The notes beneath the pieces were generated by a model. The model was not told the DNA's origin and ran no database searches. It was given only the letters and a program-made list of their open reading frames with translations. Shown here one piece after another: positions 21,944 through 57,293 of a stretch of 64,000 bases of DNA. Location: positions 30,113-94,112 of the forward strand of contig CAIVSY010000063.1 in the NCBI GenBank assembly GCA_903908715.1. Reading direction: 5' to 3'. The translations under genes were made by a program, and so were the position numbers. This DNA is from an uncultured bacterium. GTDB taxonomy: Bacteria > Verrucomicrobiota > Kiritimatiellia > CAIKKV01 > CAITUY01. Position 1 is the stretch's first letter; each line of letters opens with the position of its first letter.

Positions 21944-22342
21944 ATGAATCCGCGTATTCTCGTTCTCGAGGACGATCAGGCACTCTGCAAAATATATTCC
22001 ATTGTTCTAAGGAAAATGGGGTTTGCCCCGGATTTCGCGCCTTGCGGTGAGGACGCAATTGCTCTGTATACCCAGGCGAATACCTCAGCCGCACCTTATG
22101 CGGCTGTCATCCTTGACCTGTTTGTCGTCCATGGCATGGGCGGACTCGAAACCTGCGAGAAACTCCGCGCGATCAGCCCGCAGGTTTACACGATTGTAGC
22201 AAGCGGCTCTTCCAAGGAAACGCTCTCCTCGGAATATCAGGAGAAAGGTTTTACCGATTTTCTTGCAAAACCGTTCCGTGTACAGGATCTTGAGGAATGT
22301 CTTACCCGCATGAAGACCAGACTGGCACAGGCAGGCACATGA
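21944..22342 (+). CDS. Single-domain response regulator (receiver only)
   Basis: ILVLEDD, VILDL (phospho-Asp), ASG, KPF. Confidence 0.85.
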   Translation: MNPRILVLEDDQALCKIYSIVLRKMGFAPDFAPCGEDAIALYTQANTSAAPYAAVILDLFVVHGMGGLETCEKLRAISPQVYTIVASGSSKETLSSEYQEKGFTDFLAKPFRVQDLEECLTRMKTRLAQAGT

Positions 22343-30568: not shown

Positions 30569-31912
30569 TCAAAAGGGAAGTTTGTATTCCTGGATTTTTC
30601 GTTGAATGGTGCGTGTGGAGACGCCAAGCTCATCCGCGGTAAGTTGACGGTTCCCATTATGGCGTCGAAGTGCGGACAATATAGCCGTTCTCTCGATTTC
30701 CACAAGCGTCATTCCAGCCGTCGTTGCAGAGGGAACTCCCGACCGGCCAAGCTGGATGGCATCAGGGCCTAGCATGCGGCTCCCCGCAAGAATAACAGCC
30801 GACTCGATAACGTTTCGCAATTCACGGATATTCCCGGGCCAGGTGTGGCCGCGCAGTTTGCTCCATGTCTCAGGCAGAATCCCGTCAATCTGCCGCCCGT
30901 GGTCGGCGCACGCCGCCTTCACAAAACGCAGGGCAAGCTCAGGGATATCCTCCATCCGCTCGCGCAAGGCAGGGATACGGATCGTGACGACCTGCAAGCG
31001 GTATAACAGATCATTCCGGAACTCCCCGGCTGCGACCAATTCCTCGAGATCACGATTCGAGGCCGCCACAATACGGCAATCCACCTTGACGGGCGCTCGC
31101 CCGCCTACACGCAGAACCTCCCTGTGTTCCAGCACCCGCAACAGACGGGCTTGGACCGACTTGGGCGCAATTCCAACCTCATCCAGGAAAAGGGTCCCGC
31201 CCTCCGCCCTCTCAAACGCGCCTGCGTGGCGCTCGGATGCACCCGTAAAGGCTCCCTTTTCATGCCCGAACAACTCCGATTCAAGCAGGGACTCCGTGAA
31301 CGCTCCACAGTTGACTGCCACAAAGGGGCCTTCAGCCCGGCGACTGTCGACATGTAAGGCCCGCGCTACAAGCTCCTTGCCGGTTCCACTCTCGCCCAGG
31401 ATCAGGACTGTGGCATTCGTATCCGCCACGGATGCAATCTGCTTCAGAATCTCCTGCATCCTGCCGGATGCCGCCACCATGGAACGGGCACTATGCCGCA
31501 CACGCATCTCGTCACTCAGGCGGGCCACCTCCGAACGCAGTCGACTGGCTTCCACAGCCCTCCGTATCTTGACTTGAAGGTCTTCCAGATCGAGAGGCTT
31601 GACCAGATAATCATAACCACCATGATGCAAAGCGCTTACAGCGGTATCCACGGATCCGTAAGCCGTCATGATAAGGATAGGAATCGAAGGCTTCTGTCGC
31701 CGCACTGCGTCGAGGACCTTCAGGCCGTCCACATCCGGAAGAACGAGATCCGAAAGCACAACCTGAATGCTTTCACGAAGAGCCAAATCAATCCCCGACT
31801 GCCCGGTAGCCGCCGTGAGAACCTTGTAGCCGCAATCCCGTATCGCATCCTCAACGGACCGCCTGCCGTCAGGATCATCCTCGATAACAAGAATGGTCGG
31901 TTCTCTATTCAC
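30569..31912 (-). CDS. sigma54-dependent response regulator (REC-AAA+-Fis HTH, NtrC family)
   Basis: VIEDD, SDL (phospho-Asp), GESGTGKE, ESELFGHEKGAFTGA, FLDE, WPGNIREL, HTH. Confidence 0.94.
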   Translation of the reverse strand: MNREPTILVIEDDPDGRRSVEDAIRDCGYKVLTAATGQSGIDLALRESIQVVLSDLVLPDVDGLKVLDAVRRQKPSIPILIMTAYGSVDTAVSALHHGGYDYLVKPLDLEDLQVKIRRAVEASRLRSEVARLSDEMRVRHSARSMVAASGRMQEILKQIASVADTNATVLILGESGTGKELVARALHVDSRRAEGPFVAVNCGAFTESLLESELFGHEKGAFTGASERHAGAFERAEGGTLFLDEVGIAPKSVQARLLRVLEHREVLRVGGRAPVKVDCRIVAASNRDLEELVAAGEFRNDLLYRLQVVTIRIPALRERMEDIPELALRFVKAACADHGRQIDGILPETWSKLRGHTWPGNIRELRNVIESAVILAGSRMLGPDAIQLGRSGVPSATTAGMTLVEIERTAILSALRRHNGNRQLTADELGVSTRTIQRKIQEYKLPF

Positions 31913-50021: not shown

Positions 50022-50037
50022 AGCAACAAGCGTGCCA
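50022..50037 (-). promoter_or_regulatory. sigma54 (-24/-12) promoter for glnA-gltBD
   Basis: Minus strand TGGCAC-GCTTG-TTGCT, a full match to TGGCAC-N5-TTGCW (GG-N10-GC). Confidence 0.85.
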
Positions 50038-50100: not shown

Positions 50101-50150
50101 TGCTACAGATTTGTAACACAACCGCTCTCTTTGCTTCATTTTTGAATGCA
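50101..50150. promoter_or_regulatory. Candidate enhancer (activator-binding) palindromes
   Basis: TGCTACA-GATT-TGTAACA (50101-50118) and TGCTTCA-TTTT-TGAATGCA (50132-50150), between the two sigma54 promoters. Confidence 0.45.
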
Positions 50151-50277: not shown

Positions 50278-50293
50278 TGGCACAACTCTTGCA
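50278..50293 (+). promoter_or_regulatory. sigma54 (-24/-12) promoter for the PEP-synthase-like gene
   Basis: TGGCAC-AACTC-TTGCA, full consensus, 33 nt upstream of ATG 50326. Confidence 0.85.
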
Positions 50294-50325: not shown

Positions 50326-52950
50326 ATGAAAGGAAAACCGTCCACCCGAAACAAGCTCCCCCACTTCAGCACAGGATTACCTTCGCTCGATTCCACCCTG
50401 AACGGCCTTCTACCAGGGGATAACGTCGTATGGCAAGTCGACGAAATCAACGAGTACCGCCCGTTCGTTGACCGATTCATCGATTACAGCCGTACACTGG
50501 ATACCCCGATCGTCTACTTCCGGTTTGCCAGCCATCGCCCCTTGATTCCGGAAAATTCAGGCGTGGAAATCCATCCCGTGGAACCCGGCATGGGTTTTGA
50601 ACCCTTCGTCGGGGAAATCCTGGATGTGATCGAGCAGAAGGGTCGTGGCGCTTTGTACGTGTTCGACAGTTTGTCCGAATTGGCGGCTGACTGGTACAGC
50701 GATCGCATGCTGGGGAATTTCTTCATGATCACATGCCCCTTCCTGTTCCAACTCGACACCATCACGTACTTCGCACTGCTCAGCAATCATCATTCCTTCC
50801 ACGCCATCGACAGCATCCACCAGACAGCGCAGGTCGTTATCAATGTACACCGGAACCGGGAGCGGGTATTCATTCATCCACTAAAAGTGGAGAAGCGGTC
50901 TTCACCAACTCTGTACATGCTGCACGAATGGGAACGGGATGATTCCTTCATACCTGTCAGCGCGAGTACCACAATCGCCGAAATCATGGCCAGGGCTCCT
51001 CAGCCCTGGCTGGATTTTGCGGCAACCCGTCCCGGCATCTGGATGCAAACCGTCCTCCGGGCCCGCAAATCCATGGAGTCCTCCTTCGGCGGTTCCGGAT
51101 CACTGAAGGAAACCCAGGAATCCTTTCAACGTCTCCTGCGTGGCGCCATCACACGGGACGCCCGATTCCTGCCTCTGACCCGAAGATACTTCGACCTGCC
51201 GGATCTGCTTGCCATCATCCAGCGGATGATTGGCACAGGCCTCATTGGCGGCAAGGCACTCGGCATGCTGCTGGCCCGCGCCATTATCCGCAAGCATTCC
51301 CCGGAACTGCATGCTCGCATGGAGCCGCATGACTCTTTCTATATCGGCTCGGACGTCTTCTACACCTACCTCGTTCAAAACGGTTGCTGGGAACTGAGAC
51401 GCAAGGCCACCGACTTGAATTTCCTCATGGAGCAGAACGAGGCAACACAACGGAAGCTTATGTCCGGTTCCTTTCCAGACTATATCCGACGGCAGTTTTC
51501 GGAAATGCTGGACTACTTCGGGCAGGCACCCATCATTGTCCGCTCAAGTTCACTGCTCGAGGACAGCTACGGGAATGCCTTCTCCGGGAAGTATGAGACG
51601 GTCTTTTGCGCCAACCAGGGCAACCCTGCGCAACGCCTTGAATCGTTCATGCAGGCTGTACGCACCGTGTATGCCAGCACATTGAGCCCCGAAGCCCTCT
51701 CCTACAGGCACCAGCGCGGCCTTCTCGATCGGGACGAACAAATGTCCCTCCTGGTCCAACGGGTTTCCGGTGACCGCCACGGCACCAATTACTTCCCCCA
51801 GGTTGCCGGCGTTGGCTTCTCCTTCAATCCTTTCGTCTGGAATGAGGATATTGACCCGAAAGCCGGCATGATCCGGTTGGTCTTTGGTCTCGGCACCCGC
51901 GCCGTGGACCGGACAGGCGATGACTACACCCGCCTGATCGCCCTGAATGCGCCCGAAAAGAGACCCGAAGGCGCCCCGGGTGACTCGATCCGCTATTCGC
52001 AGCATAATGTCGATGTCCTCGACCTCTCCGAAAATCAGCTCAAGGAGAAATCGATCGCCGAGGTACTCCATGATCTTCCTGGAAGATTCCCTCAGGACCT
52101 GTTCTTTGACCGGCACGGCACACCCATCGCATCAGGGCATGAGTTCTGGCACACCACCTTCAACCGCATGATCCGCGAGACGCCATTTGTGGCCGACATG
52201 CGAGCCGTGCTGGAAATCGTTCAGGATGCCTATGAGCATCCTGTCGATATCGAATTCACCGCAAACTTCTCCAGCGCTTCGGATTACCGCATCAATCTGG
52301 TACAATGCCGGCCATTCCAGGTCCGCATCACGGGAAGCAGCGACCGCCTGCGTTCTCCGTCCACCCTCCGCCGGCAGGATATCCTCCTCGAAAGCGGCGG
52401 ACCGATCATAGGGCAAAGCGCATCAACCCCGGTCGACCGGCTGGTGCTCGTTGTGCCTGCGGTATATGGAAGAATGACCGTCAACGAACGATATGCCGTG
52501 GCGCGCGCCATAGGCAAACTGAACCGCCTGGCTGCATCCGGGCCAGCCATGACGCTCATGCTAGTCGGTCCTGGGCGTTGGGCCACCACCACACCCGCGC
52601 TGGGCATCCCCGTCTCCTTTGCTGAAATAAATGCAGCATCGATCGTCTGTGAGATTGCCGCCATGCACGAGGGCTTGATCCCGGACGTCTCGCTGGGCAC
52701 CCATTTCTTTAACGACCTCGTTGAAATGAACATGCTGTACCTTGCGGTTGCTCCTGACCGCAAGGGGCACAACGTGAACAGTTCCCTGATCACCAGCTTA
52801 CCGAACAAACTGACAACCCTCCTGCCACAGTCATCAGGCTTGGAGCAAGTCCTCTGGGTGGTCGACAGCGTGGATATCGCGGGCGGTGCGCGACTGTATC
52901 TGCATGCCGACAGCTTCAAGCAAAAAGCCGTTGTCTACCTTTCCCGATAA
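50326..52950 (+). CDS. PEP/pyruvate-binding (PPDK_N ATP-grasp) domain protein with a degenerate RecA/KaiC-like N-terminus; not a canonical PEP synthase
   Basis: STGLPSLD..LNGL..GDNVV and YVFDSLS (KaiC-like); IGGKA, VRSSSLLED...FSGKYET, LLVQRV, VAGVGFS, GLGTRAV, DIEF, VQCRP (ATP-grasp); C-terminal GPGRW...SLGTHFF. No TIM-barrel PEP domain is recognisable. Confidence 0.85.
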   Translation: MKGKPSTRNKLPHFSTGLPSLDSTLNGLLPGDNVVWQVDEINEYRPFVDRFIDYSRTLDTPIVYFRFASHRPLIPENSGVEIHPVEPGMGFEPFVGEILDVIEQKGRGALYVFDSLSELAADWYSDRMLGNFFMITCPFLFQLDTITYFALLSNHHSFHAIDSIHQTAQVVINVHRNRERVFIHPLKVEKRSSPTLYMLHEWERDDSFIPVSASTTIAEIMARAPQPWLDFAATRPGIWMQTVLRARKSMESSFGGSGSLKETQESFQRLLRGAITRDARFLPLTRRYFDLPDLLAIIQRMIGTGLIGGKALGMLLARAIIRKHSPELHARMEPHDSFYIGSDVFYTYLVQNGCWELRRKATDLNFLMEQNEATQRKLMSGSFPDYIRRQFSEMLDYFGQAPIIVRSSSLLEDSYGNAFSGKYETVFCANQGNPAQRLESFMQAVRTVYASTLSPEALSYRHQRGLLDRDEQMSLLVQRVSGDRHGTNYFPQVAGVGFSFNPFVWNEDIDPKAGMIRLVFGLGTRAVDRTGDDYTRLIALNAPEKRPEGAPGDSIRYSQHNVDVLDLSENQLKEKSIAEVLHDLPGRFPQDLFFDRHGTPIASGHEFWHTTFNRMIRETPFVADMRAVLEIVQDAYEHPVDIEFTANFSSASDYRINLVQCRPFQVRITGSSDRLRSPSTLRRQDILLESGGPIIGQSASTPVDRLVLVVPAVYGRMTVNERYAVARAIGKLNRLAASGPAMTLMLVGPGRWATTTPALGIPVSFAEINAASIVCEIAAMHEGLIPDVSLGTHFFNDLVEMNMLYLAVAPDRKGHNVNSSLITSLPNKLTTLLPQSSGLEQVLWVVDSVDIAGGARLYLHADSFKQKAVVYLSR

Positions 52951-53065: not shown

Positions 53066-54820
53066 CTATTCACGCGTGTCAAGGAAACGGTACAAGGTAG
53101 CTCTCGATACACCCAGAAGTCGGGCAGCCTCCACCTTGTTCCCTTGCGTCTTCTCCAGCGCCTCCCGTACCGCTTCATCATCCAGGCGCAAGCGCCCTTT
53201 CGGCCCCGGCCCCCCCTCGGCTGCAACCAATCCGCGCATCGGCGCCAAGGCCACCGGCGGGAGATGCTCCGGCAGGATGCTGTCCCCTTTACACTTGATC
53301 AGGGCAAATTGGATCCAATTCTGCAATTCACGGACATTCCCGGGCCAGTCGTAGCCCAGCATGACATCCATCGCCTCTGCCGAAAAACTCATCTTGCGGC
53401 GCACCCCTCCCTCGGTCAGGCGCGAAAGGAAATGATTCGCCAGAAGCGGAATGTCATTCCGACGATCCCTTAAAGGAGGAACCGTGAGAGGCACCACACT
53501 CAACCGGTAGTACAGGTCCTCCCGGAAGCGCCCTTCCGCCATTTCACGGCGCAAATCCTTGTTCGTGGCGCTGATGACCCGCACATTGACCTTGAGTGTC
53601 TTCTCCCCGCCAACCCGCTCAAAGGCGCCTTCCTGCAGGACACGCAGAAGCTTGACCTGCATGGCGGTTGATATATCCCCGATCTCATCCAGGAAAATCG
53701 TGCCGCCGTCCGCCAGCTCAAAGCGGCCTTTCTTGTCACGCACCGCCCCTGTGAAAGCACCGCGAACATGCCCGAACAACTCACTTTCAAGCAACCCTTC
53801 CGGCAGAGCGCCACAATTGACCGGAACGAACAATTTTGTGCCTCGCGGCCCCTCGTTATGCAGGGCCGCAGCAATCAGTTCCTTCCCGGTTCCGCTTTCC
53901 CCCTGGATCAGGACCGGTGCGGCAGACTCGGCAAGTTCCGGGATCAGGTCATACAGGGCAAGCATCTTGGTGTCCCGCCCGATGATGCCCGCAAACTGCT
54001 GGATCTCTCCCAGTCTCCTTGCCAGTTGCTGCTCACGCGTCATGTCCCTGAAACATGCCAGCACAGCCGTTTGCCGCCCCCCGGGGTCCCGTACAGCCGT
54101 TACCGTCATCTCGATCCGTCGCCGCTCGCCCGACGCCGTGGCAATTTCGACTTCCCGAAGCACATCCTTCGAAGGCGGCACCATGCCTTCACAAAAGGCA
54201 CACTTTCCACCACACAGGCCGCCCGCCATGACCTCATGACAGTCCTGGTTGATCACATCCTCACGTCTATAGCCTGTGATCCTCTCTGCAGCCTTGTTGA
54301 ATCCCAGGATCCGCCGATTGAGGTCATGGATAATCACCCCATCCGTCAAGTGATCCAAAATCAGTTCAGACTGCTCCCGGGCATGGAACAGAGCCGCAAG
54401 ATACCCATGCGAGAACAACTCATTGACCAATCCACGAACGATTGCCGCCAGGGCCCGGATAGCGTCCTGCCTGCCTGCCGGATCCCCGTCCCCCGCCGGA
54501 AGCCTTGCGATGTTCCAATGAAGACAAAGCGGATTCCCCGGAAGGTTCCGGCACTGCTCGGCCGCCTCGTCGCAAAGAGTGATGACCAGGTCATACTCTC
54601 TGCGCATCGCCTCATCACGCTGCACACCCGCTCCCGGATCCGGCAGATCGATCTCGCGTAACAACGCGGCAACAGCAGGATCAACCCCGGTATTATCCAA
54701 ACCGGCAAAAACGATTTCCTGGTCGGTCTTGCGATAGGACCGGGAAAACGCCGCAGCCAGAAAGCCTCGGCTCGCATCCCCTCCCGACACAAACAGGATC
54801 CTGTATCTTCTAGTTGCCAT
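53066..54820 (-). CDS. sigma54 enhancer-binding protein: ArsC/LMW-PTP-like domain + PAS + AAA+ + Fis HTH
   Basis: RILFVSGGDASR...DLVITLCDEAAEQC...LHW; DGVIIHD...FNKAAERITGY (PAS); GESGTGKE, GAFTGA, FLDE, WPGNVREL; HTH. AAGGA SD before ATG 54820. Confidence 0.9.
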   Translation of the reverse strand: MATRRYRILFVSGGDASRGFLAAAFSRSYRKTDQEIVFAGLDNTGVDPAVAALLREIDLPDPGAGVQRDEAMRREYDLVITLCDEAAEQCRNLPGNPLCLHWNIARLPAGDGDPAGRQDAIRALAAIVRGLVNELFSHGYLAALFHAREQSELILDHLTDGVIIHDLNRRILGFNKAAERITGYRREDVINQDCHEVMAGGLCGGKCAFCEGMVPPSKDVLREVEIATASGERRRIEMTVTAVRDPGGRQTAVLACFRDMTREQQLARRLGEIQQFAGIIGRDTKMLALYDLIPELAESAAPVLIQGESGTGKELIAAALHNEGPRGTKLFVPVNCGALPEGLLESELFGHVRGAFTGAVRDKKGRFELADGGTIFLDEIGDISTAMQVKLLRVLQEGAFERVGGEKTLKVNVRVISATNKDLRREMAEGRFREDLYYRLSVVPLTVPPLRDRRNDIPLLANHFLSRLTEGGVRRKMSFSAEAMDVMLGYDWPGNVRELQNWIQFALIKCKGDSILPEHLPPVALAPMRGLVAAEGGPGPKGRLRLDDEAVREALEKTQGNKVEAARLLGVSRATLYRFLDTRE

Positions 54821-54840
54821 TCTCTGTTCCTTCCCAAGAA

Positions 54841-56121
54841 TCAACGGTCCAGAAGCCCGTCTTCCACCGCCTGACGAATTAACCGCTCTGCATATTCCCA
54901 TAAGGCGGCCGACCCTTGCTCGACATGGCTGTTGCGTTCACGAACCTGGCCCTGATCAATGCCGTGGGTACGCCAGACAACTCCGCCGGTGTAGTAGTTG
55001 TGAAGCAGCGGCTGCACACGGTCAAGAGCAGCGGCAAACCTCGCCTCCGGGGTCCGGCGCGCCTCGAATTCATCCCACAAGCCGCGAACCCATGCCGCCT
55101 GATCCGGCGGCAGAATGCCGAATACCCGGTTGGCGGCAGCTCGTTCGCGCTCCAGTTTCCCGGCGTTCCCGGTCACGTCATAGCAATACGTATCCCCGGC
55201 ATCGATTTCCACAAGATCATGCATCAGCACCATCTCCACCACTCGCGCAATATCGATATCCTTGATCACCGCAAACTCCCGCAATAGAACCGCCATCACG
55301 GCCAGATGCCAGGAGTGCTCCGCATCGTTCTCGTAGCGGCTCCCATCCATGAGCAGGGTCTTGCGAAACACATGCTTAAGCTTATCGATCTCCAGTATGA
55401 ACTCCATGATCCTTGCCAGCCGCTCGCCGCCAGCCTCCGCGGCGGGCATCACGGGCCGCATAGAAAAGGAGGCTGTCGATCCGGGGCCTGCCGCTGCACG
55501 GGCCTCAAGCCAATCCAGGAGGTGACCGGCAACCGCACGCTTGCTCATGAGCGGCAATTCCCGGAAGGAGCCATCCGGAAAAACCAGCAGCACCCGGTTC
55601 GTATCCACATCAAAGCCAGCGTCGGTCTGACGGACATCGTTCGCCACAATCATGTCCACGCCCTTGGCCCCACACTTGCGGCGGGCCTCCAACAATACGT
55701 CTTCCGTCTCCGCAGCAAACCCTATCACGATGCGGCTCCCCTTCTCGTCCCGCAATTCGCGAAGGATGTCTGGGGTCGGGACAAGGCGCAAATCCGCGCC
55801 TGCCGTCAGCTTCTTGATCTTCTCGTGACGGAACTCAGCCGGACGCCAATCGGCCACGGCAGCCGCCATTACGAGGGCATCACAGGTCCGGAAGTGCCGC
55901 TGGACCAACGCCAGCATCTCGGCGGCAGAAACTGCCCTTTCCACCAGAACACCCGCCGGCGCCGGCAAGGAAACCGGACCACTGACCAGGACAACCTCGT
56001 GACCCCGTGCACGTGCAACCTCCGCTACCGCGTAGCCCATTTTCCCGGACGAACGATTGCTTAAAAAACGCACCGGGTCCAGATGCTCCCGGGTCGGTCC
56101 AGCGGTAACCAGGATTCGCAT
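54841..56121 (-). CDS. coaB: CoaB (phosphopantothenate--cysteine ligase) domain fused to an HD-domain (HD_3, 5'-deoxynucleotidase-like) hydrolase
   Basis: N-half VTAGPTRE.LDPVRFLSNRSSGKMG, AAAVADW, GFAAET, IVANDV; C-half ENDAEHSWH, MHDLVEIDAGDTY, EARFAAALDR. No stop codon between the halves. Confidence 0.85.
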   Translation of the reverse strand: MRILVTAGPTREHLDPVRFLSNRSSGKMGYAVAEVARARGHEVVLVSGPVSLPAPAGVLVERAVSAAEMLALVQRHFRTCDALVMAAAVADWRPAEFRHEKIKKLTAGADLRLVPTPDILRELRDEKGSRIVIGFAAETEDVLLEARRKCGAKGVDMIVANDVRQTDAGFDVDTNRVLLVFPDGSFRELPLMSKRAVAGHLLDWLEARAAAGPGSTASFSMRPVMPAAEAGGERLARIMEFILEIDKLKHVFRKTLLMDGSRYENDAEHSWHLAVMAVLLREFAVIKDIDIARVVEMVLMHDLVEIDAGDTYCYDVTGNAGKLERERAAANRVFGILPPDQAAWVRGLWDEFEARRTPEARFAAALDRVQPLLHNYYTGGVVWRTHGIDQGQVRERNSHVEQGSAALWEYAERLIRQAVEDGLLDR

Positions 56122-56136
56122 GGCATGCCCTCCATC

Positions 56137-57021
56137 TTAACGGGCGTCGAATTCCCGGATCTTCTCCCGAACCACGGATTCCGCCTCGTTATAGATCTCA
56201 CGGATCATGGGATCCGTGAAGGAGTACACCCGTTCCTCCCACGTCGTACTTTTCAGGCGGTCAAACAAACGCTGGCGGGCGGCATCGATGTCCTTGCCGT
56301 AGATATGGAAGGAATCCGCATGCCAGTTCAACCGGGCCAGGCGCACCTCCCGCCCGGACTTTTTCGCCACGCCCGCAGCCACGATATCATGGTTGAACAT
56401 CGTGAATCCGAACATGTTCATGAAATTGGCCCCCCAGGCATCGTTGCTCCGGAAGCGGATATTGCAGTTGAGCCACCAGACGCCCTTTTCATCCTCCTGG
56501 ATCCGGTACCAGATCGACTGCAGACACGGCGGGTCATAGCATTCCAGGTCAAGATTGGGCATCCACGTGATCATCTGGGCTTGCCGTGTAAACGGCTGGC
56601 TCACCAGCTTGTCAATCACCGCTTCGACCTGGTTGATCTTGAAGGAACCCGCCTCCACCGACTCATAGTGGCGCAGCTCTTTCCAGACCCCGTAGTTCGC
56701 CAGCCGCCCGTGATACGTGTACTCCCATCGCGTATCCGCGGTGTCATTCATATTCTTGACCCAATGGTCCTTGGCCCCCTGCAGTTCCATCACATATTCG
56801 CGAAGGTCCTCGATCCCTCCGGGAAATGCCTTGTGGATCATCGGTTCCGCCATCGGATCCAGAACGGTAATGCACATGGTCGAATCGAGGCTTTCGGGAT
56901 CACCAGGCTTGTCATACTGTGTCCTGAATCGGGTCCCCTTCTCGTAGAGTTCGCGCAGGGCCCTCTCGTATGCCTCAGCCAAAGACCGCCCTTCCACATG
57001 CAATACCGGGATGTTCTTCAT
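56137..57021 (-). CDS. thyA: Thymidylate synthase family protein, archaeal-type/divergent
   Basis: YTYHGRL, TRQA, DPPCLQ (catalytic Cys), FRSND, GANFMN (Asn), SFHIY. Confidence 0.75.
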   Translation of the reverse strand: MKNIPVLHVEGRSLAEAYERALRELYEKGTRFRTQYDKPGDPESLDSTMCITVLDPMAEPMIHKAFPGGIEDLREYVMELQGAKDHWVKNMNDTADTRWEYTYHGRLANYGVWKELRHYESVEAGSFKINQVEAVIDKLVSQPFTRQAQMITWMPNLDLECYDPPCLQSIWYRIQEDEKGVWWLNCNIRFRSNDAWGANFMNMFGFTMFNHDIVAAGVAKKSGREVRLARLNWHADSFHIYGKDIDAARQRLFDRLKSTTWEERVYSFTDPMIREIYNEAESVVREKIREFDAR

Positions 57022-57293
57022 GCTGCCTTCTCCCTCATGCTGTTAAACGCTCCGCACAGGTTACCCCGCATGCGCTTGCCGATAAACCGCCGGGGCTCAT
57101 TGCGCCTCCTGACCGGCTCCATTCTTATGCTTTTCACGGTGGGGATGGAAAGCTTTTTCCAAAGCGGAGCGATGTGTCTCCATGACTTGCGAACCCGGCG
57201 AAATCGCTGCCATGAACCCGGCGTTCCTGATTTCCCAGCACCATGCCCCTTCCTCCTTGCATCCCGGAAGGCAGTTTGCCAACGTACGCAGCC

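Follow-up and report, generated by a model that had tools for sequence, protein, structure and literature searches.

The input domains that a review of bacterial enhancer-binding proteins (bEBPs) names are receiver, PRD, PAS, V4R, ACT and GAF domains (PMC7175178). Among the closest described systems to the one considered here is OrpR of Desulfovibrio vulgaris, in which residues C52, C61 and C65 of the PAS domain, together with D/E54, are required for redox sensing. Purified OrpR shows a redox-labile [4Fe-4S] signal, which its authors assigned to the PAS domain, and OrpR lacking this domain is constitutive (PMC8359166). Here we describe a sigma-54 activator gene (53066–54820, minus strand) in a 64,000-nucleotide stretch of DNA from an uncultured Kiritimatiellia bacterium (contig CAIVSY010000063.1); this whole stretch is called the window below, and coordinates are positions within it. 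The 584-residue product contains an ArsC-like N-terminal domain (N-domain), a linker, a Cys-rich PAS domain, an AAA+ domain and an HTH_8 domain. The window sequence was found in lake-water metagenome DNA, and no RNA runs carrying it were found.

An earlier note on this DNA had called the architecture unusual for an enhancer-binding protein, and indeed it is rare: the ArsC/low-molecular-weight protein tyrosine phosphatase (LMW-PTP) module is not among the bEBP input domains of the review cited above, and our literature search found no paper combining LMWPc or ArsC with sigma-54 activators. On balance, the comparisons presented here favour a one-component, redox-sensing activator of the OrpR type, with a pseudo-ArsC input and a predicted output to stress operons.

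The N-domain is an ArsC relative without catalytic residues

The open reading frame (ORF) that encloses the activator runs from 53066 to 54901 on the minus strand, and the functional start is the ATG at 54820. A GGAAGGA ribosome-binding site precedes this ATG, and the upstream gene stops at 54841. Numbered from this Met, the P-loop, Cys-pair and HWNIARLP residues listed in the earlier note are all correct.

The ArsC/LMW-PTP-fold domain covers residues 1–137 (54410–54820, minus strand). In a phmmer search against Protein Data Bank (PDB) chains, residues 7–110 aligned with the S. aureus pI258 ArsC (1jf8, E 2e-9) and with the B. subtilis ArsC (1jl3, E 1e-7). Pfam LMWPc (PF01451) matched weakly at residues 8–93 (E 6e-4), with 20.4 bits against a cut-off of 23.2 bits. 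We also built an AlphaFold model of residues 1–275 from 45 homologues (pLDDT 90.3, pTM 0.86), in which the N-domain adopts a four-stranded parallel beta/alpha fold with strands at 6–12, 34–40, 78–81 and 98–101. Foldseek matched this part of the model to the B. subtilis ArsC 1jl3 (TM 0.82 on the target, rmsd 2.6 Å) and to 8p5n (TM 0.81), with further matches to the pI258 ArsC and D. indicus ArsC2. Because the phmmer and structure matches agree, we take the likeness to ArsC to reflect homology and not chance.

The phmmer alignment places S12, S17, R18, C83 and C90 opposite Cys10, Cys15, Arg16, Cys82 and Cys89 of ArsC, respectively. In the P-loop, active enzymes read C-X5-R, whereas the activator reads S12-G-G-D-A-S-R18 (54767–54787, minus strand). 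The HW-GFDDP stretch of ArsC lies opposite HW-NIARLP, so that the general-acid Asp of the HW-x-x-D-D-P motif is gone from H101-W-N-I-A-R-L-P108 (54497–54520, minus strand). The C83-X6-C90 pair (54551–54574, minus strand) is retained. Its alignment with the Cys82/Cys89 redox pair bears out a correspondence that the earlier note had drawn by eye, and in the model the region contains a helix (84–89) that is the counterpart of the ArsC "redox helix". With both the nucleophile Cys and the general-acid Asp missing, the N-domain is predicted to be unable to reduce arsenate or to act as a phosphatase. We place it outside the catalytic ArsC/LMW-PTP family: it shares the fold and the Cys pair, and it lacks the C-X5-R motif, the general acid and a Pfam score above the cut-off. 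In the model, two long helices (114–136 and 140–157) join it to the PAS domain, the second of them lying with a conserved LFxHGYL junction in residues 138–157 (54350–54409, minus strand).

A family in which the P-loop is mostly degenerate

A word-indexed search with residues 1–150 found 3 proteins and was too insensitive; it was replaced by phmmer and a genome scan. Phmmer with the same residues against the full library returned many ArsC-like proteins, about 29 representatives of which continue into the LFxHGYL linker and the start of the PAS domain. The scan, which took one genome per species, yielded 79 distinct loci. At least 45 of them encode the full ArsC-like/linker/Cys-PAS/AAA+/HTH architecture in 575–611 residues (two are clipped by contig ends), and the remaining loci encode proteins of 435–475 residues without the N-domain. 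Represented among these 45 members are Kiritimatiellia and other Verrucomicrobiota, Lentisphaerota (Victivallales), Planctomycetota, Bacillota, Desulfobacterota, Calditrichota and Myxococcota. About 40 metagenomic clusters were gained from a further search, which was word-indexed. Public names of the relatives are only "PAS domain S-box(-containing) protein" or "sigma 54-interacting transcriptional regulator".

The relatives do not mostly retain the P-loop Cys, a result in line with the earlier note's view of an inactive ArsC/LMW-PTP fold. C-X5-R is intact in 7 of the 45 members, five keep the Cys only (12 with Cys in all), 18 keep the Arg only and 15 have neither residue; among roughly 38 metagenomic relatives with a readable P-loop, two have the canonical motif. 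In the clade of eight that contains the window protein, position 12 is S, A or T throughout and the general-acid Asp is always missing, whereas most other family members keep the D-P. Arg18 is present in seven of these eight proteins, the exception being L008 with His. The C83/C90 pair is complete in 19 of the 45 members, and 15 have neither Cys.

The relatives at loci L087–L089 (P0160, P0161 and P0164) have the P-loop S-E-G-D-S-C-R, in which the second P-loop Cys, the Arg and the D-P are kept and the nucleophile is gone. A Pyr_redox_2 gene lies directly upstream of the activator in the L087–L089 loci or in the locus of the related P0164.

Constraint on the N-domain centres on the Cys pair

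To follow the N-domain independently of its own residues, the tree was built on the PAS-AAA-HTH part, with the N-domain trait columns excluded. The eight-member window clade has 100% support; all its P-loops are dead and C83 and C90 are invariant. It forms a polytomy with sequences from Lentisphaerota and Verrucomicrobiota, among which L010, L011 and L012 have C-X5-R. Members with an intact motif are scattered over the tree (6 changes), a pattern that fits an ancestral canonical C-X5-R motif lost independently at least five times.

In close pairs, dN/dS was 0.09–0.28 for the N-domain versus 0.04–0.15 for the PAS and AAA+ domains. The N-domain is therefore relaxed, yet under purifying selection, and it is not the poorly conserved domain that would have undercut the earlier note. 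Within the window clade, 27 of its 137 positions are invariant, and 13 of these fall in residues 77–102 (D77, V79, L82, C83, A86, C90, L93, G95, N96, P97, L100, H101 and W102). S12 and R18 are not among the invariant positions.

These patterns bear on two alternatives to a redox role. In one, the N-domain carries no signal: it would be a structural or oligomerisation appendage, such as a dimerisation cap or an intramolecular repressor of ring assembly, or a relic, and the PAS domain would sense alone. Each catalytic or redox residue is indeed dispensable somewhere in the family, as seen in the two sets of 15 members without either P-loop residue and without either Cys of the pair. Proteins without the N-domain are also interspersed on the tree, which takes 3–4 gain or loss changes, the dN/dS of the N-domain is 1.3–6 times that of the PAS and AAA+ domains, and the positions conserved family-wide (L9, F10, A22, G58, D77, G95, P97 and W102) mostly look like fold core. 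However, a dN/dS of 0.1–0.3 still means selection, C83 and C90 both fall among the 20% of positions that are invariant in the clade (a chance of about 0.04) and in its most conserved stretch, and the Cys pair persists in at least five separate "dead" lineages. We consider a signal-free N-domain rather unlikely, yet a purely structural or allosteric role is a serious competitor of the thiol switch.

The other alternative is an anion cradle. Here the Cys-less P-loop and Arg18 would hold a phosphorylated ligand or an oxyanion (phosphate, arsenate, sulfate or a phospho-protein) that activates the protein, making the domain a substrate-trapping pseudo-phosphatase. Cys-to-Ser mutants are classic substrate traps, and the best PDB match, 1jf8, is itself a C10S/C15A mutant. 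The length of the P-loop is kept, G14 and A16 are invariant in the clade, whose members mostly have Arg18, and a gene for a PPDK-like putative kinase lies nearby. Against this, Arg is lost in 20 of the 45 members and replaced by His18 in L008, position 12 varies among S, A and T, and the loop of many close relatives is GG-x-DA-[ST]-[ILVCF]-S, without the Arg. The P-loop is less constrained than residues 77–102. Furthermore, the PPDK_N gene is not beside the activator in L006–L009 or L084–L089, and its partner in L093 is a GAF activator. Such a cradle thus seems decidedly improbable to us. Because constraint centres on the redox-helix region and not on the anion-binding loop, we put a C83/C90 thiol switch ahead of a phospho-ligand trap, and the domain is most likely such a switch or an allosteric module; of the two functions that the earlier note had offered for the domain, the thiol-redox switch is favoured, whereas the substrate-trapping binder of a phospho-ligand or oxyanion is weakened by the loss of Arg and the variability of S12 and R18. 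A switch of this kind cannot be the role of the whole family, since 26 of the 45 members lack at least one Cys of the pair.

A Cys-rich PAS domain and an intact sigma-54 core

Behind the N-domain, the protein has strong Pfam matches to PAS (152–260), Sigma54_activat (279–445, E 9e-70), AAA_lid_14 and HTH_8, in agreement with the PAS domain and intact GAFTGA-bearing AAA+ domain that had been recognised at the outset. The PAS domain, delimited to residues 152–262 by Pfam and structure matches (54035–54367, minus strand), carries a motif that the earlier note had overlooked, C194-X8-C203-X3-C207. In full it reads C194-H-E196-X6-C203-X3-C207-X2-C210 (54191–54241, minus strand), a putative Fe-S ligand motif with the spacing of OrpR C52/C61/C65 and an acid at +2. 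C194, C203 and C207 are present in all 45 members, C210 in 36 and an acid at 196 in 41. The ten Cys residues of the activator are at 83, 90, 99, 194, 203, 207, 210, 256, 336 and 510. In Foldseek searches, the second half of the model superposes on the PAS domains of LOV, FixL, NifL and DosP proteins. The PAS Cys loop (about 198–219) is the sole lower-confidence stretch of the model, as one would expect for a cofactor site. Because the Cys motif is invariant in the family and has the spacing of the OrpR triad, the PAS domain is probably the primary sensor.

The AAA+ sigma-54 interaction domain (53486–53986, minus strand, from Pfam and motif positions) contains Walker A, GESGTGKE (53879–53902, minus strand), GAFTGA (53744–53761, minus strand) and Walker B, FLDEI (53681–53695, minus strand). 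With these motifs, an arginine-finger region and a C-terminal Fis-type helix-turn-helix (HTH), the protein has all the hallmarks of a bEBP. It has neither a Response_reg nor a GAF domain, and its NCBIfam equivalog scores are below the cut-offs for both nifA (366 vs 529) and ntrC (331 vs 559). The activator is not an NtrC or NifA equivalog.

Relatives often adjoin oxidative-stress operons with TGAGACA-type enhancers

The Fis-type HTH, GNKVEAARLLGVSRATLYRFL (53087–53176, minus strand), is almost identical to that of relatives that adjoin TGAGACA-type enhancers. In the Victivallales loci L027, L031, L037 and L043, a sigma-54 promoter that is divergent from or adjacent to the activator gene has TGTCTCA/TGAGACA repeats ahead of it and serves genes for ferritin, rubrerythrin, NADH oxidoreductase, hemerythrin and flavodiiron protein (FDP). 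In the Desulfobulbales-type loci L032, L035 and L041, the activator gene stands last in an operon that also encodes AhpC, a multihaem cytochrome, desulfoferrodoxin, ferritin and FDP. Downstream of the activator in the Kiritimatiellia P0176 (L084) and P0162 lie a small ORF and then genes for thioredoxin-like protein, rubredoxin, desulfoferrodoxin, ferritin, DsbD and G6PD; in L084, TGAGACA repeats and a sigma-54 promoter precede the stress genes. L085, whose activator has an intact C-X5-R motif, has the same type of enhancer. Pyr_redox genes are also among the operon contents next to relatives.

We scanned systematically for clusters of TGAGAC/GTCTCA half-sites 30–300 bp upstream of a sigma-54-like promoter, beside the activator gene. 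Such arrangements were found in L012, L031, L037, L038, L043, L084 and L085, beside the N-domain-less L054, L056 and L057, and in imperfect form in L027. The window protein's recognition helix, SRATLYRF, and its AARLLG stretch are within the range of the TGAGACA-linked proteins, which come from four phyla. By gene context, the signature of the family is oxidative-stress defence under a TGAGACA-type enhancer. No TGAGAC/GTCTCA pair occurs in the 64-kb window or in L001 and L005–L009, and since the window is without such a site, the target is probably elsewhere in the genome.

A role in arsenic sensing was considered and is unsupported: there are no ars genes nearby, and the members L012 and L027, with intact C-X5-R, adjoin FDP or ferritin genes. 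The first gene of the sigma-54 stress operons in L084 (8959–9147), L027, L031, L037 and L043 is a conserved Cys-containing ORF of about 60 residues (MDDYNENVRLLIQVATELITVADKGQVECTDENCMSLYGLAKDCGYRIKN...), and the L084 copy is without a Pfam match on record.

The Kiritimatiellia relatives examined all have the activator gene at the end of an operon with thyA-like and coaB-HD genes and at times Pyr_redox. In the window it is the third gene, after a thyA-like gene (56137–57021) and a coaB-HD fusion (54841–56121), which together span 54841–57021 on the minus strand. This order (thyA-like, coaB-HD, optionally Pyr_redox, activator) is kept across a wide Kiritimatiellia radiation, including L084–L089, and a conserved sigma-70-like promoter (AAAAGCTTTTCAT ... 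CATAAT) precedes the operon. A sigma-54-like match upstream of the operon (57198–57212) was set aside as weak and not conserved, the sigma-70-like promoter being the element conserved there instead.

Neighbouring nitrogen promoters are probably served by another activator

Two full-consensus sigma-54 promoters stand back to back near the activator gene, one for GSIII-gltB-gltD and downstream genes (50022–50037, minus strand) and one for a PPDK_N gene (50278–50293, plus strand). Between them lie a dyad, GCTACAGATTTGTAAC (50102–50117), which is unique in the window, and a related dyad, TTCATTTTTGAA (50135–50146). L005–L009 share the promoter and the tandem TACA-N4-TGTA dyads, which are spaced by about 30 bp, and the activator is adjacent there too.

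This arrangement suggests that the activator could be the nitrogen-assimilation regulator of its clade, binding TACA-N4-TGTA and driving GSIII-gltBD(-purF-pyrG-carB) and PPDK_N, which would place GS-GOGAT under redox control. Its gene is beside these promoters in the window, L005 and L006–L009 (L001 has the PPDK_N gene and stops short of the promoter region), the promoter and dyads stand out as conserved from unconserved DNA around them, and the presumed target in relatives is the promoter that comes right after the activator gene. Genes for bEBPs are usually found near their targets (PMC8359166). However, eighty metagenomic GSIII loci have like dyads and a sigma-54 promoter without an activator of this type nearby. 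The same dyads occur upstream of GSIII or amtB-glnK with no such activator in the vicinity in L091, L092, L097, L099 and L115; about 5.9 kb upstream is covered in L091 and L115, and glnK is directly upstream in L092 and L097. L090, with PPDK_N and GSIII, has threonine synthase at the activator's place. In L093 and L100, the dyads lie beside the gene for a NifA-like GAF-AAA+ activator whose HTH is different; in L093 this gene points the same way as the PPDK_N gene and diverges from amtB-glnK-GSIII-gltB. The HTH of our activator, as shown above, matches TGAGACA-linked relatives across four phyla, and the window also encodes a second activator (30569–31912). We therefore regard a nitrogen role as unlikely. 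With near-identical HTHs adjoining TGAGACA sites and the dyads adjoining GAF activators and glnK, we do not treat the dyads as the activator's enhancer; TACA-N4-TGTA looks like the site of a GAF-type nitrogen regulator encoded outside the window, and the GSIII-gltBD and PPDK_N promoters are probably served by that or another activator.

Taken together, the window and loci L005–L009, L090–L093, L097, L099, L100 and L115 show the tandem dyads and the sigma-54 promoter after them to be a widely conserved enhancer arrangement ahead of GSIII or amtB-glnK. The NifA-like GAF-AAA+ activator of L093 and L100 is the likely nitrogen regulator of these bacteria. The PPDK_N gene encodes an 874-residue protein (50326–52950, plus strand) with no other Pfam domain even at E ≤ 1. 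It travels with the nitrogen cluster in several lineages (L090, 3060–5813; L093, 1–1449); in L093 it is immediately downstream of the GAF activator, and it is not consistently linked to the ArsC-PAS activator. The second sigma-54 activator of the window (minus strand, 447 residues) has a receiver-AAA+-HTH architecture and no adjacent histidine kinase. It was rejected as NtrC, being below every NCBIfam equivalog cut-off and having no orthologue near GSIII in the loci examined. A stand-alone receiver-domain ORF (MNPRILVLEDDQ...; 21944–22300, plus strand) is absent from the 200-residue ORF list; a near-match to the dyad at 22185–22200 falls inside this coding region and was counted as chance.

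A model for redox sensing, and its weak points

In the model that we prefer, an OrpR-type activator with a pseudo-ArsC input, the PAS domain would hold a redox-labile [4Fe-4S] cluster, as in OrpR, and gate the assembly of the AAA+ ring or its ATPase activity. The pseudo-ArsC domain could add a second input through helices 114–136 and 140–157. In the window clade this input would most likely be a reversible C83–C90 disulfide, the counterpart of a pair that thioredoxin resets in ArsC. The output would be activation of sigma-54 promoters with TGAGACA/TGTCTCA half-site clusters, which in relatives precede oxidative-stress operons. The ancestral P-loop Cys, with its low pKa, could have been an oxidant-reactive thiol, with C82/C89 as resolving thiols. 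A broader version, in which the ArsC-like module and the Fe-S PAS domain form a hitherto unrecognised two-input oxidant sensor with which anaerobes of the PVC group, Desulfobacterota, Bacillota and others drive sigma-54-dependent oxidative-stress operons, the ancestral P-loop Cys relaying to thioredoxin-reset C82/C89 and the window lineage keeping a two-Cys switch, is offered only tentatively.

Several points weigh against this model. The OrpR likeness comes down to Cys spacing and domain order. OrpR binds a different site (GGGCGYRTTTTGCGCCC), so DNA specificity in the superfamily can change, and oxidation turns OrpR off, whereas one would expect it to turn a stress operon on. Beyond the members with an incomplete pair already counted, several close metagenomic relatives also lack C83 or C90. 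Finally, the activator gene adjoins the GSIII sigma-54 promoter region in six species-level genomes, and in L006–L009 the dyads start 40–60 bp past the activator stop, where relatives have their presumed target promoter; because a genome has few sigma-54 promoters, such a position speaks for a real connection.

If the model holds, the family is a concrete candidate for the means by which little-studied anaerobes (Kiritimatiellia, Lentisphaerota, Planctomycetota and some members of Desulfobacterota and Bacillota) turn on their ferritin, rubrerythrin, flavodiiron and superoxide-reductase defences. Its repeated, independent losses of the catalytic site also form a natural series in which to study the change from enzyme to sensor, and the two-input sensor, if true, would be an enzyme-to-sensor conversion and would define a new class of regulatory domain in bEBPs. 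The results also advise caution in assigning the GS-GOGAT and PPDK-like genes nearby to the activator's regulon.

Comparison with known systems

Thiol peroxide sensors such as OxyR, and LMW-PTPs that are reversibly inactivated by H2O2, use a reactive thiol or disulfide that is reset by thioredoxin, and such sensors control stress-defence genes. The logic proposed here is alike. The activator differs in fold and in its sigma-54 AAA+ output, and its putative peroxidatic Cys is gone.

The thioredoxin-coupled ArsC enzymes of S. aureus pI258 and B. subtilis share with the N-domain the fold, the length of the P-loop with its Arg, and the Cys82/Cys89 pair. In contrast to these enzymes, Cys10 and Cys15 are both replaced by Ser, the general-acid Asp105 is lost, and the domain is the N-terminal module of an activator and not a free enzyme. 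As in NifL-NifA and NorR, a sensory N-terminal module would control a GAFTGA AAA+ core, and the NifL PAS domain (2gj3, 9qq6) is among the structures matched by the PAS half of the model. However, those systems use a FAD-PAS domain in a partner protein or a GAF iron centre, neither of which is used here; the activator would instead sense in cis, by means of its Cys-rich PAS domain and a domain derived from an enzyme.

OrpR (DVU2106 of Desulfovibrio vulgaris Hildenborough) has the same order of PAS, AAA+ and HTH domains and the same C-X8-C-X3-C triad in its PAS domain, with the acid two positions past the first Cys. N-domain-less Desulfobacterota relatives fall in the activator's tree. The activator has in addition the 137-residue pseudo-ArsC domain and a fourth Cys (C210). 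The DNA site of OrpR differs from the TGAGACA clusters beside the activator's relatives, and its regulon consists of the orp operons, not stress-defence genes (PMC8359166). We conclude that the protein is probably an OrpR-like activator with an added ArsC-derived module, and that its family is undescribed as far as our literature search and the bEBP review show.

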